A stretch of DNA of 6,281 bases from a virus (lineage: Duplodnaviria > Heunggongvirae > Uroviricota > Caudoviricetes): IMG/VR virus record IMGVR_UViG_2541047777_000002. The stretch is one strand, 5' to 3'. The translations under genes and the position numbers were made by a program. Below are positions 1,492 to 6,135 of this stretch, in pieces. Position 1 is the stretch's first letter; every line of letters begins with the position of its first letter. The notes under the pieces were generated by a model. That model made no database searches. It saw only the letters and a list, made by a program, of their open reading frames with translations, and had not been told where the DNA came from.

Positions 1492-1818
1492 ATGTCTACT
1501 ACTGCATTTTTGGACAAACTTGATTACCGTCAGCTGCAGTTCTGCCGGGATGAATGCGATCGACGCATTAAGGCTATCCAGGAGGAAGAAAAAAAGGTCG
1601 CCTGGGCTGTAACAGATCGTGGCCTTATCTTTGGCTGGTTCCGTACGGAGGATTACCTGAAAGCAGTGGAATTATTGGCGCGTAAGGCTGCTGAGCGTTG
1701 GGAACGAGCCGACAAGGAAAACCCGGAGACGAAGTATGAACTGAATCTCTACATCGAGGGCAACCGTCTACCATTGTCAGAGTATAACGCTTTGTTTGCT
1801 GATGGTGAGTGGGGTTAA
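1492..1818 (+). CDS. hypothetical protein, 108 aa, predicted cytoplasmic
   Basis: Seen: ATG 1492 with GGGGAG about 7 nt upstream; stop TAA 1816-1818 is 2 nt before the next start (translational coupling). No hydrophobic segment. No recognised domain. Confidence 0.6.
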   Translation: MSTTAFLDKLDYRQLQFCRDECDRRIKAIQEEEKKVAWAVTDRGLIFGWFRTEDYLKAVELLARKAAERWERADKENPETKYELNLYIEGNRLPLSEYNALFADGEWG

Positions 1819-1820
1819 AA

Positions 1821-2216
1821 ATGGCTGTTCAATCATACAAACACCAATCCCTCTTGGATAAGGGATACATTCGCATCAAGCTAAGTCGTTCTCAGCATAA
1901 GGCCATTTTTAGGGTAAGGAAAATTCGTATATGGGATACGTATGCGTATTACTATAACGGTGAAGAGGTTATTGTTGAGCACTTTCTTGCCCGATGGTTT
2001 GTAGCCCTGATTTTTGTCCCTTTTCTGTTAATTGGCACTTTGGCAGACGGTTTTCCTAGCACATGGCAGGAGCTAAAGAAATGCCTTTTCCCGCATAGAT
2101 ACGGTAGCCTTTCGGCAGACAGCTGGCGAGTTATACCTGGTAAACATTCTGTGGATGAGCAGCCGATTGTTGATTACTGGTTGAAGCGTATGGCTGATGC
2201 TAAAAAAGTTGATTGA
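1821..2216 (+). CDS. hypothetical single-pass membrane protein, 131 aa (alternative GTG start at 1809)
   Basis: Seen: ATG 1821 preceded by GAGTGGGG; one strongly hydrophobic segment (WFVALIFVPFLLIGTLA) after a basic N-terminal region; stop TGA 2214-2216. AT-rich coding sequence. Confidence 0.55.
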   Translation: MAVQSYKHQSLLDKGYIRIKLSRSQHKAIFRVRKIRIWDTYAYYYNGEEVIVEHFLARWFVALIFVPFLLIGTLADGFPSTWQELKKCLFPHRYGSLSADSWRVIPGKHSVDEQPIVDYWLKRMADAKKVD

Positions 2217-2243
2217 GTTGTGATAACTGTTACAGGAGATAAA

Positions 2244-2531
2244 GTGAAGAGTTTTATTTTGGTTTTATGTTTTGCCTTTTCTGCTGCGGTTTATGCCCAG
2301 GAAGATAGCATTTCTGTTATTAACTCATCAGCGGAGCTTGCATGTAAAAATAATCCCGATGCTGCATCAAAAGAATCATGCAAAGAACTGCTCCTTTCGA
2401 CGGCTGCTTTTGCTTCTGAAAATGCGAAATTTTATTCAGCCTTCTGTCGCGGCTATGTTAAGGAAGAAGATAAAGAAAAATGTGATGATGCCGGTAAGTT
2501 AGTTAGGTATTTCCACTCTCTTAATCCGTAA
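2244..2531 (+). CDS. hypothetical secreted/periplasmic small Cys-containing protein, 95-aa precursor (track start 2220 is an upstream in-frame GTG)
   Basis: Seen: GTG 2244 preceded by AGGAG (2233-2237) at 6 nt; N-terminus (M)KSFILVLCFAFSAAVYA/QE looks like a Sec signal peptide with an AxA-type cleavage site; mature part has 4 Cys; no lipobox. Stop TAA 2529-2531. Confidence 0.55.
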   Translation: MKSFILVLCFAFSAAVYAQEDSISVINSSAELACKNNPDAASKESCKELLLSTAAFASENAKFYSAFCRGYVKEEDKEKCDDAGKLVRYFHSLNP

Positions 2532-2632: not shown

Positions 2633-2662
2633 TTGACGTGTGCGTCGTTTTGACGGTAAAGT
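2633..2662 (+). promoter_or_regulatory. candidate sigma70 promoter for the anti-immunity operon (TTGACG - 18 nt - TAAAGT)
   Basis: Seen: TTGACG at 2633-2638 and TAAAGT at 2657-2662. The -10 match is weak (4/6) and there is a second TTGACG at 2650-2655. Inference only. Confidence 0.25.
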
Positions 2663-2691
2663 TACTCCGCTGCGGCAAATTCCGCAGCCGG

Positions 2692-2715
2692 GCGTGAGAA
2701 CCCGGATAAACGAAG
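2692..2715 (+). promoter_or_regulatory. upstream copy of antisense-RNA target sites (a1 GTGAGAA 2694-2700; b1 AAACGAAG 2708-2715)
   Basis: Seen: both elements are exact reverse complements of two single-stranded segments of the downstream RNA (TTCTCAC 2828-2834; CTTCGTTT 2813-2820). The 10-mer GCGTGAGAAC (2692-2701) recurs at 2862-2871. Knowledge: phage P1 immI has a1/b1 upstream and a2/b2 downstream of c4. Confidence 0.5.
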
Positions 2716-2720
2716 CGCAC

Positions 2721-2743
2721 AACACGCGCCAGCGTGTTTTTTT
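2721..2743 (+). terminator. intrinsic-terminator-like hairpin (AACACGC-GCCA-GCGTGTT) followed by a T run
   Basis: Seen: 7-bp stem with 4-nt loop; seven consecutive T at 2737-2743, of which the first two pair in the stem. Lies between the a1/b1 elements and the structured RNA. The stem is short, so efficiency is uncertain. Confidence 0.5.
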
Positions 2744-2772
2744 GTGTGTATATACCTGCGCATATCCGATTT

Positions 2773-2855
2773 ATGGTGGCTCAGGCGGGGCTGACTTCGG
2801 TCAGGCCGGTTTCTTCGTTTGCCGGTATTCTCACCCCCGCTTGGGCTACCACCAT
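2773..2855 (+). ncRNA. c4: c4-type antisense (repressor) RNA of an immI-like anti-immunity locus; ends approximate
   Basis: Seen: 7-bp closing helix (ATGGTGG 2773-2779 with CCACCAT 2849-2855); inner helix GCGGGG 2785-2790 with CCCCGC 2835-2840; hairpin CTGAC-TTCG-GTCAG (2791-2804); hairpin CCGG(T)/(G)CCGG (2806-2825) whose loop carries CTTCGTTT; unpaired TATTCTCAC (2826-2834). Both single-stranded segments are complementary to short elements upstream and downstream. GC-rich, with no convincing ORF. Knowledge: this matches P1/P7 c4 and N15 CA RNA. Confidence 0.65.
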
Positions 2856-2861
2856 TCAAGA

Positions 2862-2901
2862 GCGTGAGAACTCTGGTGGTAGCACGACCAATTAAACGGA
2901 G
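2862..2901 (+). promoter_or_regulatory. downstream antisense target sites (a2 GTGAGAA 2864-2870; b2 AAACGGAG 2894-2901, overlapping the SD of the Icd-like ORF)
   Basis: Seen: a2 is identical to a1; b2 pairs with the RNA loop CUUCGUUU using one G-U wobble and contains GGAG 8 nt upstream of ATG 2910. Inference: pairing would occlude the ribosome-binding site. Confidence 0.6.
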
Positions 2902-2909
2902 TGCATACC

Positions 2910-3074
2910 ATGTTCAAATTCAAATTTGCGGCAGTCGTTCGCACAGACAAAAAGTCACACATCCATCATCTTTCCACCATCGCGTCATCTGAACGGGAAG
3001 CTCGTCGCCAGTTCGCCAGCCGGTTTGTCCTGGTATTGTCTGCCCGTATTCCGGTGCGCGAGGTGGCTGCATGA
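2910..3074 (+). CDS. icd: Icd-like small protein (putative cell-division inhibitor), 54 aa; not in the supplied ORF track
   Basis: Seen: ATG 2910 with GGAG 8 nt upstream; translation MFKFKFAAVVRTDKKSHIHHLSTIASSEREARRQFASRFVLVLSARIPVREVAA; stop TGA 3072-3074 overlaps ATG 3071 of the next ORF. Knowledge (from memory, not searched): resembles Icd-like proteins that follow c4 in P1-type immI loci. Confidence 0.6.
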   Translation: MFKFKFAAVVRTDKKSHIHHLSTIASSEREARRQFASRFVLVLSARIPVREVAA

Positions 3075-3304
3075 ATCAGGTAAAAATGAACACTGTTGGC
3101 CTGCTGGAATCGTTGGATGAACGTCTGGCTCAGGTCTATGCGCTCGTATCATCAGCCCATCGGACAGTCTCCAGCTGTGAGGCGTCGATTTATCTCTCAG
3201 AAGCAGGGAAACTCCTTCAAATTGCGTGTGAGTTAACACACGAAGCACAGGGATATTCAGCATCGCTCTCGTCGCAATTGCTGCACGGTAAGGAGGCTGA
3301 ATGA
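3071..3304 (+). CDS. hypothetical protein, 77 aa, within the antirepressor operon
   Basis: Seen: ATG 3071 with GAGGTGG (3060-3066) 4 nt upstream; ATGA overlap with the previous stop and with the next start at 3301. No recognised domain. Confidence 0.6.
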   Translation: MNQVKMNTVGLLESLDERLAQVYALVSSAHRTVSSCEASIYLSEAGKLLQIACELTHEAQGYSASLSSQLLHGKEAE

Positions 3305-4074
3305 GCGCGTTAGCAGTCTTTTCCTTTCAGGAAGAGCATCAGGTACGTGTAGTGATGATTAACGGCGATCCGTGGTTTGTGGCGAATGATATTTGCAATG
3401 CTTTAAGCATCCAGAATGTCACACAAGCTATCGCTCGATTAGATGAAGATGAGCGATCTATGTTTAACATAGGCCGTCAAGGTCAAGCCAATATCATCAG
3501 TGAATCAGGTCTTTACACGCTCATTCTCCGCTGCCGTGACGCTGTAAAACAGGGCACGACCGCGTGGCGTTTTCGTAAATGGGTAACGAACGAGGTCTTG
3601 CCCTCTATTCGCAAGAATGGAGAGTACGTTTACGTCGAGCCTGAGCCAATGCGAGCAGCAGAGCCGTTGAACTGGAGGCAGAAGGAGTATCTGCGAGGGC
3701 TGATTAACGATATTGCACAAAGTTTTCAATACCGAAATGCCTGGATTAGTGGTGTATGGTTGGCTTTGCGTCGGGCGTGTCGTAATCCATCCCCGAACCC
3801 CATAACGGTTGATGATTTGCCAGCAATTACGGCAGAACTGCGCCGGATTTTGACGGCTGCTGAGTCGGCATTGGGGAACATGCGCACGTATGAACGAGAG
3901 TTGTTGCGTGATGTTGTTCGTGGGGGTAGGCGGAGTATGTCGTGTGGTGATTTGCCCATCACCGATATTAACTCTGATCTGGAAAAGGCGTTACCCGCGC
4001 ATTTTGAACTGGCAGTTCAAAAACTTGAGCAGTTATCCGCGCAGCTAAAGCCAGCAGAAATCACCAATAAATAG
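3301..4074 (+). CDS. ant: phage antirepressor with N-terminal Bro-N-type domain, 257 aa
   Basis: Seen: ATG 3301 with strong SD TAAGGAGG (3289-3296). N-terminus FSFQEEHQVRVVMINGDPWFVANDICNALSI...GLYTLILRCR...FRKWVTNEVLPSIRKNGEY matches the Bro-N / antirepressor pattern (FxF, DGxxWFva-Dva, GlY-li, VLPxiRk-G) as recalled. Gene order (antisense RNA, icd-like, ant) supports the call. Confidence 0.8.
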   Translation: MSALAVFSFQEEHQVRVVMINGDPWFVANDICNALSIQNVTQAIARLDEDERSMFNIGRQGQANIISESGLYTLILRCRDAVKQGTTAWRFRKWVTNEVLPSIRKNGEYVYVEPEPMRAAEPLNWRQKEYLRGLINDIAQSFQYRNAWISGVWLALRRACRNPSPNPITVDDLPAITAELRRILTAAESALGNMRTYERELLRDVVRGGRRSMSCGDLPITDINSDLEKALPAHFELAVQKLEQLSAQLKPAEITNK

Positions 4075-4245: not shown

Positions 4246-6135
4246 TTAACCGAAATATGTCAGCCATGCTAACTGCATTGCTGACATGGGGCTGTTTGCA
4301 CTGCCGGACCACGCATAATTCTGGCCATTATAATGAAACTCAACAACGTATGAGCCATCACCAATATTTCTCACCGGCTTAAATACCGGCTTAGATACAG
4401 GCGAAGAAGGTGCAGGCGGTTGCTGTTCTTCTACGCTCTCTTCCTCTTCCTCTATCTCAATTTCGTCGTCATCCAGATCGTCATCCTCTGACAATTCATC
4501 CGCCAGTTCAGGTATTGCTTCCAGTTCTTCTTCGTCAGGCATAACGATTTCTGGAGTATCTATTTTCAGTTGCCATTGTCCGTTTTCGCCAACAAATTGC
4601 CCCAGAGCATCAGCAGCAAATTCCAGGTATCGACTAATCATTGTTGGGCTAAATTTGAACGCTCTTAGAGTGCTGTTCGTGATTTTTATAGAGGGGTCCT
4701 GCTCTACCAGCTGCTTAACTGTGTTATGCAGACGAACCCCGGCATCTCCTCTGGCGAATCCAGGCATTTCGTCATCAAGCTGCTGCAATGCTTCCAGCCT
4801 GGTATTTTCGTTTCCAGTATTTGGCCTCCATGTCTTTGAGAAGTTGGCCAGCTTGAATTGCTTATAGTGTAATTGAGTGTTTTCATCGTCATGGCCTAAA
4901 ATTTCCATAAAGAAAACATCTTCATCTACGTTTTTCCAACGAGGATCTACGCGGAAAAACATTTCATACGCAATACGGGCATAAATAGCACGACTATCTT
5001 TATAAACACGGCGGTCATCTTTGAAAAATGATTTAACCCACGGGTTAAAAGCCTTTGCTAATATGGCATTAATACGTCCGTTTTCAGAGCGTGTGTCGTT
5101 ATCTCCATAACCTTTAACGACATCATCAAAATCAGATGCTGCTGGGCATGAGCGAAGTACATTTATTAAATAAACAAATGTTTTTGCTTCGCATAATGTA
5201 TATATTTTTCTGGTTATATCATCAGAAGTTCTTTTTTTAGCTTGGCCTAAAAAATCAACGGTATACTTACCAGAAACAGTAAATGTACCTTGATACATAA
5301 TCTCAATCATTCGTCTTCCTGACAATGCAGCAAGTGCAAATGCCAAAGGAGCCATACCTGAACGAGTGTTTAGATTATTTAATGTAGCAGGGCTATTTAT
5401 AATATCGTAAATAGCTTGCATATATTTAGGGTAATCAATGACCACCACGTTACGTTTCTTATTGTGCAGAACGTCCGCCCATCGTTGCTGGATAGATGCA
5501 CGTTCGGCAGGGCTTAGTTGAAGATGATAGAGAATCTCATGGTTAACTTTTAGCTGATTCAACTCCTCAAGTAATGCAGATCCTTGCTGTAGTAATTTAT
5601 ATAAATAATCGCGCTTATCTTTCCAGTTATCGCTAGTTAAATCAGAAATGGCGAATTGCCACTCTTTATATTTATTTGATAATTTCAATAACTTATTATG
5701 ACTTTTGTTATCGCCAATTCTGATATTAGATAAATCTTCTGATAGAGGGAGAATTAATTTTAATTTTGCCTGTAAAGCTGACATTCTCTGGCGAATATCG
5801 GCAGCAGGTAGAGAAAGCCATGACAATAGCTCCTCATTATATAAAGGATACTTTTCAGATAGGCGATGTATATTTTTTTCAAAGCTATGATGAAGTTTAT
5901 CATCAAACCGTTTTCTGGCCCTGCTCATATAGGCATTGAATGTGTTGGCTGTAATTCTTTTTTCTAATCCTTTCCCCCTAAACTTTCGCTTGTCATTAAA
6001 TAATGCATTTTTAAATTTTAATGCAACAGCCTTTATTTTTTTTGTTTTCTCCCCTTGAGGACGGTCAGAGTTATCTATTGACTCAACATCGCTAACAAGT
6101 GAGTTTATTAATTCACCGATTTTTACTTTGCTCAT
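4246..6135 (-). CDS. telN: protelomerase (telomere resolvase), TelN-like, 629 aa
   Basis: Seen: intact 629-aa ORF with SD AGGAGAGG upstream of ATG (minus strand). Knowledge (from memory): long stretches (N-terminus MSKVKIGELIN..., RSGMAPLAFALA, RSENGRINAILAKAFNPWVKSFF, RRVYKDSRAIYARIAYEMFF, NTQLHYKQFKLANF) match phage N15 TelN, including a tyrosine-recombinase-like catalytic region, an acidic linker and a C-terminal domain. Confidence 0.9.
   Translation of the reverse strand: MSKVKIGELINSLVSDVESIDNSDRPQGEKTKKIKAVALKFKNALFNDKRKFRGKGLEKRITANTFNAYMSRARKRFDDKLHHSFEKNIHRLSEKYPLYNEELLSWLSLPAADIRQRMSALQAKLKLILPLSEDLSNIRIGDNKSHNKLLKLSNKYKEWQFAISDLTSDNWKDKRDYLYKLLQQGSALLEELNQLKVNHEILYHLQLSPAERASIQQRWADVLHNKKRNVVVIDYPKYMQAIYDIINSPATLNNLNTRSGMAPLAFALAALSGRRMIEIMYQGTFTVSGKYTVDFLGQAKKRTSDDITRKIYTLCEAKTFVYLINVLRSCPAASDFDDVVKGYGDNDTRSENGRINAILAKAFNPWVKSFFKDDRRVYKDSRAIYARIAYEMFFRVDPRWKNVDEDVFFMEILGHDDENTQLHYKQFKLANFSKTWRPNTGNENTRLEALQQLDDEMPGFARGDAGVRLHNTVKQLVEQDPSIKITNSTLRAFKFSPTMISRYLEFAADALGQFVGENGQWQLKIDTPEIVMPDEEELEAIPELADELSEDDDLDDDEIEIEEEEESVEEQQPPAPSSPVSKPVFKPVRNIGDGSYVVEFHYNGQNYAWSGSANSPMSAMQLAWLTYFG

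Follow-up and report, generated by a model that had tools for sequence, protein, structure and literature searches.

The 6,281-nucleotide (nt) stretch of viral DNA analyzed here (IMG/VR record IMGVR_UViG_2541047777_000002, Caudoviricetes, hereafter the window) carries a complete c4/CA-type antisense immunity unit, the RNA with its upstream and downstream targets, and the locus belongs to an N15-like linear phage-plasmid. The features by which the C4, c4-a1b1 and isrK families and the N15 immA locus can be recognized from sequence are all present. We consider it very probable that a secondary-immunity riboregulator of the immA/immI type, working by the whole mechanism proposed below, is the best explanation of the locus; the sequence elements, the fold, the family membership, the covariation and the gene orthology behind this reading were observed directly. 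The window represents a known system and not a structural variant, and its particular trait is the pair of words that gives the RNA its specificity.

The C4 antisense RNA

2769–2856 (+): gene of a C4/CA-type antisense RNA (Rfam RF01695), structured core at 2774–2851

The initial annotation of this region had read a c4-type unit from the sequence and proposed an Rfam scan and folding as checks. The scan matched RF01695 (C4 antisense RNA) over the whole model, positions 1–87 of 87, with 82.2 bits against a gathering threshold of 45 and E = 1.3e-15. Folding of 2769–2856 gave a stable structure in which both antisense segments are exposed: the minimum free energy (MFE) is −47.9 kcal/mol, the MFE structure is also the centroid, and the z-score is −6.6 against 200 shuffles. 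The closing helix has 17 base pairs (bp), formed by 2774–2790 with 2835–2851, and not the 7 bp originally claimed. Hairpin 1 (2791–2804) is capped by UUCG, and hairpin 2 (2805–2826) has a 10-nt loop (2811–2820) carrying the antisense word b′. The other word, a′, lies in a single-stranded junction of 8 nt (2827–2834). Both words are unpaired in this fold with a probability of about 0.98 each (0.985 for a′). The helices covary across the 24 related loci described below, and the closing helix, which is acceptor-like, is directly followed by a CCA (2852–2854).

The UUCG hairpin had been taken as a peculiarity, and the RNA as possibly a distinct variant. In fact, this hairpin belongs to the Rfam C4 consensus, and the idea of a variant is left unsupported by the end-to-end model match at 82 bits, by the 17-bp length of the closing helix and by the N15 RNA, whose architecture is the same.

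Antisense words and their targets

2694–2700 (+): a1, GTGAGAA, upstream complement of a′; compensatory changes at 6 of the 7 a1:a′ pairs across 24 loci
2708–2715 (+): b1, AAACGAAG, upstream complement of b′; compensatory changes at all 8 b1:b′ pairs, 92.6% of cells paired
2813–2820 (+): b′, antisense word CUUCGUUU, in the loop of hairpin 2
2828–2834 (+): a′, antisense word UUCUCAC, in the single-stranded junction
2864–2870 (+): a2, GTGAGAA, downstream complement of a′; compensatory changes at 6 of the 7 a′:a2 pairs
2894–2901 (+): b2, AAACGGAG, with one G-U wobble to b′; contains the GGAG Shine-Dalgarno (SD) sequence of the icd-like gene

The complementarities described earlier all hold. GTGAGAA at 2694–2700 and 2864–2870 is the exact reverse complement of 2828–2834, while 2813–2820 matches 2708–2715 exactly and 2894–2901 with one G-U pair. 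The order is correctly antiparallel, as a precedes b in the targets and b′ precedes a′ in the RNA. It had also been stated that b2 overlaps the SD of the Icd-like open reading frame (ORF), and we found GGAG at 2898–2901, inside b2 and 8 nt before the ATG at 2910. An A-to-G change sets b2 apart from a perfect complement of b′; it leaves a G-U pair and creates the GGAG SD. L041 and L132, two relatives in our survey that share the b′ loop, have an exact 10-nt b2, CAAACGAAGA, and several G-U pairs also occur at b2 of a P1-like locus.

The arrangement had been judged very unlikely to arise by chance. We searched dinucleotide shuffles of 2640–2925 for an exact 7-mer triple (word, reverse complement, word) with a nested 8-nt triple allowing at most one G-U pair. 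The real sequence contains this arrangement, and none of 40,000 shuffles does, which bears out the judgment; a lone 7-mer triple occurs in 1.6% of shuffles of the same region. A fourth GTGAGAA lies at 4368–4374 (−), within the protelomerase coding strand and with no b-type word adjacent. This copy is at chance level, 0.88 copies being expected per window.

Covariation among related loci

We scanned IMG/VR for the C4 core motif, which returned 120 stretches. Overall there were 129 motif matches, of which 32 showed the C4 architecture and 24 were non-redundant with adequate flanks; the whole unit was then aligned (alignment A1). These 24 loci combine 11 a′ words with 13 b′ regions in 18 different ways. 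Each locus has, for its a′ word, an exact complement of 7–8 nt on the upstream side (−68 to −126) and another on the downstream side (+1 to +12). The b′ word likewise has upstream and downstream complements, in a few cases with G-U pairs, as in b2 of the window. Moreover, in all relatives listed only a few nt separate b2 from the ATG that follows it, and b2 overlaps GGAG or GAGG. Rfam C4 was found in all of 12 diverse loci.

For specificity, each pairing was scored by the shorter of its upstream and downstream flank matches. The cognate a′ reaches 7–8 nt in 24 of 24 loci, and not one of 492 non-cognate pairings reaches 7 nt; for b′, fewer than 1% of the non-cognate pairings do so. Since only the cognate a′ reaches 7 nt on both sides, the relationship between antisense and target is under selection. 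When the C4 fold is taken together with a1:a′ and b1:b′, 90% of cells are paired, against 34–47% in controls with slid partners. Duplex energies of the whole C4 against the flanks separate cognate from non-cognate pairs weakly (−31.9 vs −25.1 kcal/mol) because the helix arms contribute, and exact-word and column-pair counts were used instead.

One relative, L010, illustrates how the words change. Outside the words its identity to the window is 88.5%, inside them 71%, and its a1, a′ and a2 have switched jointly, from GTGAGAA to TTCGCAA, the a′ being AUUGCGAA. As L010 differs in a′, and N15 in both a′ and b′, the window represents a distinct specificity allele of a well-populated family. The words also reassort; AUUCCUAC and ACUGCAAA, for example, are both found with more than one b′ loop, two in each case. 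Such a pattern suggests that immunity specificity is exchanged in modules or is under diversifying selection. The window's pair of specificity words is already present in several public contigs: L003–L009 match the query at 100%, and in L008 the entire unit has the sequence of the window.

Other Rfam RNAs were seen near C4 units of unrelated viral contigs, namely an int-alpA RNA (L034, 5981–6049, −, 62 bits) and a TwoAYGGAY RNA (L053, 2832–2951, −, 59 bits).

The upstream leader, an IsrK homologue

2633–2662 (+): putative sigma-70-like promoter, TTGACG-18-TAAAGT, from a promoter scan; predicted transcript start near 2669
2669–2743 (+): IsrK-like leader RNA unit (Rfam isrK and c4-a1b1, terminator scan, fold)

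Beyond what the initial annotation described, a1 and b1 lie inside a promoter-to-terminator unit of their own, which is a homologue of IsrK. Rfam RF01394 (isrK) matches 2669–2742, terminator included, over model positions 1–77 of 77 with 68.1 bits (gathering 50), and RF03163 (c4-a1b1) passes narrowly at 2656–2708 with 48.8 bits (gathering 46.7). The unit begins with a hairpin at 2669–2688. Then follows the a1 hairpin, with the stem 2689–2692/2701–2704 and a1 in its loop, and b1 is single-stranded between this hairpin and an intrinsic terminator. The terminator scan placed the stem of the latter at 2721–2738 and the T-run at 2737–2743, 5 nt past b1.

The promoter is likely the counterpart of the N15 immA promoter, and in nearly all of the 24 loci a −35/−10 pair precedes the first hairpin with the same spacing. 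In 21 of the 24 loci, b1 and C4 are separated by a hairpin followed by six or more T (T7 in 20), which is missing in the P1-like loci. Rfam isrK is above gathering in 7 of the 12 diverse loci. A consensus promoter scan detected no separate promoter between the terminator and C4.

Extended and alternative pairings

2845–2883 (+): alternative bipartite hairpin, from the full-leader fold, cross-lineage recurrence and covariation

Two further pairings predicted in the leader also go beyond the initial annotation. In the first, 2689–2715 can pair with 2813–2839 over about 23 bp (as 8+4+7+4 bp), more than the 7+8 nt of the words, because the a1 stem finds further partners in hairpin 2 (its 3′ arm) and in the start of the closing helix. 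The MFE fold of the whole leader (2669–2925) uses this cis a1b1:C4 duplex at −106.8 kcal/mol, and the modular folds sum to about −94 kcal/mol. The gap between a2 and b2 is 23 nt, and only two short contacts with C4 are possible there. Potentially, then, C4 has a much stronger partner upstream than at the downstream, regulated site.

In the second, the end of the C4 3′ arm plus CC (GCUACCACC, 2845–2853) has an exact 9-nt complement, GGUGGUAGC, at 2875–2883. This helix competes with the C4 closing helix and encloses an a2 hairpin (stem 2859–2862/2871–2874) whose loop carries a2. It recurs with differing sequences in N15-like, P1-like and other lineages, with 82% of cells paired and compensatory changes at 4 of 9 pairs (slid controls 28–52%). 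Candidate roles of this modeled helix are precursor folding, processing or presentation of a2.

The downstream operon

2910–3074 (+): icd-like gene, 54 amino acids (aa); NCBIfam NF033153 (phage_ICD_like) and identity to N15 gp32
3071–3304 (+): 77-aa gene, orthologue of N15 gp31 (antA position); 62% identity to gp31, PHROG 10889 "anti-repressor"
3301–4074 (+): Bro-N protein gene, orthologue of N15 gp30 (antB position); Pfam Bro-N at 74.7 bits, 73% identity

The icd-like product matches NF033153 with 67 bits (cutoff 25) and shares 94% identity with the last 54 aa of N15 gp32. The Bro-N protein also matches PHROG families of anti-repressor Ant. The stop of icd overlaps the start of the 77-aa gene as ATGA, and the stop of the latter overlaps the start of the Bro-N gene in the same way. 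A scan of genome contigs for relatives through the 77-aa protein confirmed none. The +1 frame of the icd-like gene (2911–3074) is free of stops over all 54 codons, and in L010 an ORF starting on C4 continues through this frame for more than 100 codons; such an open frame may be due to chance in a short GC-rich gene.

Genomic setting

The immunity unit sits, as N15 immA does, between repA and the protelomerase gene telN: the C-terminus of the replication protein is encoded at 44–1303, and a protelomerase with all four TelK/ResT domains at 4246–6135 (−). DNA identity is 81% to the N15 cA/immA region and 98% to E. coli plasmid-prophages. The gene order of the N15 map agrees, and at the position corresponding to 2721–2743 this map marks a "putative rho-independent terminator". 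Orthology to N15 immA follows from the synteny between repA and telN and from the orthologous icd, gp31 and gp30 genes. The initial annotation had seen here the a1/b1 - C4 - a2/b2 - icd - ant logic of P1 immI and N15 immA, and the Rfam matches, the N15 synteny, NF033153 and the covariation all agree with it.

Between repA and the immunity unit lie three small genes at 1492–2531 (+) (PHROGs 10878, 15458 and 26765). In Klebsiella telomere phages, telocin toxin-immunity cassettes occupy the repA-protelomerase interval (PMC12042878), so that 1492–2531 can be regarded as a variable cargo region. The "ImmA" of a 2025 paper on telomere phages was rejected as a counterpart, being an unrelated bacteriocin immunity protein.

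Proposed mechanism

In the mechanism that we favor, we infer processing, translational block, polarity and a decoy role. The promoter at about 2633–2662 would be constitutive and transcribe the leader. Most transcripts would probably end at the terminator 2721–2743, giving an IsrK-like RNA of about 75 nt that shows the a1 loop and single-stranded b1. Read-through transcripts would carry C4 (core 2774–2851), which is probably excised, with a 5′ end made by RNase P as in P1/P7 C4, and would accumulate as a species of 77–80 nt. The acceptor-like closing helix with its tRNA-like 3′ CCA, such as an RNase P substrate would have, and the lack of a detected promoter between the terminator and C4 are consistent with such processing. 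Mature C4 would expose the b′ loop and the a′ junction, and these would pair on operon transcripts with a2, at a hairpin tip, and with b2. Since b2 contains the icd SD, ribosome binding would be blocked, and as the icd, antA-like and Bro-N/antB-like genes overlap by ATGA, the block would spread downstream, through lost translational coupling and probably Rho-dependent polarity. In the lysogen, this would keep the anti-repressor and the cell-division inhibitor off. The most likely role of the a1/b1 copy is to titrate or refold C4, in cis in the precursor and in trans as the short leader, and this decoy would set the threshold of the switch, as shown for IsrK in the Salmonella prophage Gifsy-1. 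It is from the Gifsy-1 IsrK results that we assign titration of C4 to the short leader and a cis-paired inactive fold to the precursor. The 7–8-nt words a′ and b′ would set specificity (heteroimmunity), and their covariation indirectly supports a role in repression and in the specificity of superinfection immunity.

Some points weigh against this mechanism. The CCA behind the closing helix is not family-wide, as N15 and many relatives have CCC (alignment A1, columns ~247–250), so the RNase P step leans mainly on homology to P1/P7. For the exact N15 mechanism, translational block or premature termination, we rely on the title of Ravin et al. 1999. The C4 equivalent of Gifsy-1 has been treated as orf45, translated and needed downstream, which a simple antisense model misses, and as Gifsy-1 has no obvious icd step, the transfer of its details is uncertain.

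A bolder version, possible though we lean against it, is that the locus is a three-RNA switch and not a two-component one, in which the terminated a1/b1 leader is an anti-antisense decoy and the precursor toggles between modular and cis-paired folds. That the covarying helix 2845–2853/2875–2883 stabilizes the cis-paired fold is an equally tentative part of it. If it were true, IsrK-type activation and c4-type repression would be one widespread module of P1-, N15- and Gifsy-like elements, and the "Ash", orf45 and gp32 protein families would be largely translations of the C4 RNA gene.

Alternative explanations

2773–2895 (+): "ash family protein" ORF, 40 aa; RefSeq coding sequence (CDS) at the equivalent place in a 98%-identical plasmid

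That the repeated words are chance matches or remnants of duplication is so improbable as to be negligible. A single 7-mer triple does turn up in the shuffles at the frequency given above, and the extra GTGAGAA is at chance level; however, the nested arrangement was never reproduced, the words covary at three sites each over 24 loci, and curated covariance models match. The covariation analysis refutes the chance reading, and we rejected it. The regulator could otherwise be a protein encoded at 2773–2895, known as Ash, as the N15 "cA/gp32 secondary immunity repressor" or as Gifsy-1 "orf45", to which the ORF corresponds by position. The RefSeq CDS of 40 aa lies exactly on C4, and the translation matches Pfam PF10554 (Phage_ASH) with 37.5 bits (cutoff 26), as does translation of the C4 gene in N15, in L023 and in a P1-like locus. 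An ATG stands at the 5′ edge of the closing helix in 20 of 24 loci, and translation of orf45 has been reported in Gifsy-1 (PMC4825925). The DNA of the C4 gene is also covered by the N15 "cA/gp32" CDS and by PHROG "transcriptional repressor" families. Nevertheless, compensatory double changes occur in all helices and between a′/b′ and their targets, the ATG is missing in 4 of 24 loci, and no SD precedes that of the window. ORF length (from 38 aa to read-through of more than 100 codons) and frame relative to icd vary, orf45 is conserved in nucleotides and variable in amino acids (PMC12197685), and for N15 the title of Ravin et al. 1999 names a small processed RNA as the controlling agent. A regulatory protein is thus very unlikely, and we rejected it on the variation by base-pairing rules, the loss of the ATG and the unstable length and frame of the ORF. 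More likely, what PF10554 recognizes is a conserved RNA gene in translation, and the Phage_ASH family may largely be of that kind.

Premature termination as the primary mode of action deserves more weight, and we hold it unlikely without thinking it far-fetched. C4 would then act as P4 CI does, binding nascent a1/b1 and/or a2/b2 and boosting termination at the intrinsic terminator 2721–2743 or at a Rho-dependent site in or after icd, and occlusion of the ribosome-binding site would be secondary. In P4, CI pairs with seqA and seqC and causes premature termination, and in P1, repression of ant by c4 involves Rho-dependent termination after the block of icd translation; both speak for this model, as does the intrinsic terminator 5 nt past b1, kept in 21 of 24 loci. 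Moreover, in Gifsy-1 IsrK supplied in trans raised a transcriptional fusion 8-fold, and the IsrK authors proposed that the processed RNA acts in a P4 CI-like way at the IsrK terminator (both PMC4825925). Against it, b2 lies on the SD in every lineage examined, so that translation initiation looks like the selected contact; P1-like loci retain a1/b1 without the terminator; and the terminator hairpin is predicted to form whether b1 is paired or not. The two modes may coexist, and the translational block remains our preferred reading.

Significance

The analysis confirms rather than discovers, as curated models already recognize every RNA part. It has value for annotation, since near-identical plasmid records have no RNA feature and an "ash family protein" CDS is placed on the RNA instead. 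Because its a′ and b′ words are unlike those of N15 and of a relative about 90% identical, the window carries a natural specificity allele, which is useful for tests of heteroimmunity among the N15-like phage-plasmids that clinical E. coli and Klebsiella now commonly carry. Furthermore, the IsrK-like terminated leader and the alternative helix are conserved parts of the module, and they join the c4 and IsrK literatures, which are usually cited apart.

Comparison with known systems

The C4 system was reportedly described in 1990 for P1/P7, by Citron and Schuster, and in 1999 for N15. N15 immA is an operon with icd, antA and antB (PMC4488713), and the title of Ravin et al. 1999, cited there, gives control of the N15 anti-immunity operon by a small processed RNA. 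N15 immA (Ravin, Svarchevsky & Deho 1999) shares with the window the whole order of promoter, a1/b1, terminator, RNA, a2/b2, icd, gp31 and gp30, and its CA RNA has the C4 architecture of the window RNA. The words differ: a′ is AUUCUCAC in the window and GUUGAGAA in N15, b′ is UUCUUCGUUU in the window and UUCUUCUUGU in N15, and all four targets in N15 have changed to match its own words. Heteroimmunity at this locus is therefore predicted. Another difference is that the ORF overlapping C4 runs in frame into icd in N15, whereas in the window it is closed at 2893.

In P1, full repression of the c4-icd-ant operon needs the C4 antisense RNA (PMC8198154), and C4 of P1/P7 is a substrate of RNase P (Hartmann et al. 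1995, as cited in PMC2190699). The immI c4 of P1/P7 resembles the window in the three-way RNA with UUCG hairpin, b′ loop and a′ junction, in the two sets of targets, in b2 lying on the icd SD and in the anti-repressor gene downstream. A P1-like locus on a 93-kb contig (L026) aligns throughout. In contrast to the window, P1-like loci have no intrinsic terminator between b1 and C4 and a spacing of 21 nt between a1 and b1 instead of 7, and the anti-repressors of P1 are Ant1/2, where the window has an AntA-like and a Bro-N protein.

The CI/seqA/seqB/seqC system of satellite phage P4 is alike in that a small RNA is processed from the leader of its own operon and has complementary sites on both sides. 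Unlike the system described here, P4 CI works mainly by premature termination and controls replication genes, not an icd-ant operon. IsrK has been called a structural homologue of P4 SeqA, and its complementarity with STnc1160 was observed (PMC4825925). In APSE phages the c4 and isrK families have been noted together, with no functional link drawn.

In Gifsy-1 (Hershko-Shalev et al. 2016, PMC4825925), IsrK terminates or reads through, and STnc1160, a processed RNA that is stable, comes next. In "structure A" the long transcript is translationally silent, it is activated more than 100-fold by short IsrK in trans, and compensatory mutations at G28/C162 and G31/C159 prove the pairing (PMC4825925). 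Two differences stand out: the C4 equivalent of Gifsy-1 has been read as a translated orf45 coupled directly to anrP, whereas the window has a separate icd-like gene with b2 on its SD; and in Gifsy-1 the short RNA has been shown to activate expression. By analogy (PMC4825925), the leader of the window may accumulate as a short, Hfq-binding RNA that activates the operon in trans. The IsrK locus (RF01394) is otherwise alike in its promoter, two hairpins, terminator, read-through into a processed RNA and anti-repressor gene behind it. As in "structure A", the predicted full-leader fold of the window pairs a1/b1 with the b′/a′ side of C4. Moreover, G28:C162 and G31:C159 map onto a1 and a′, by position and Rfam consensus rather than by the Gifsy-1 sequence; counted from 2669, +28 and +31 are 2696 and 2699, and +159 and +162 are 2827 and 2830.

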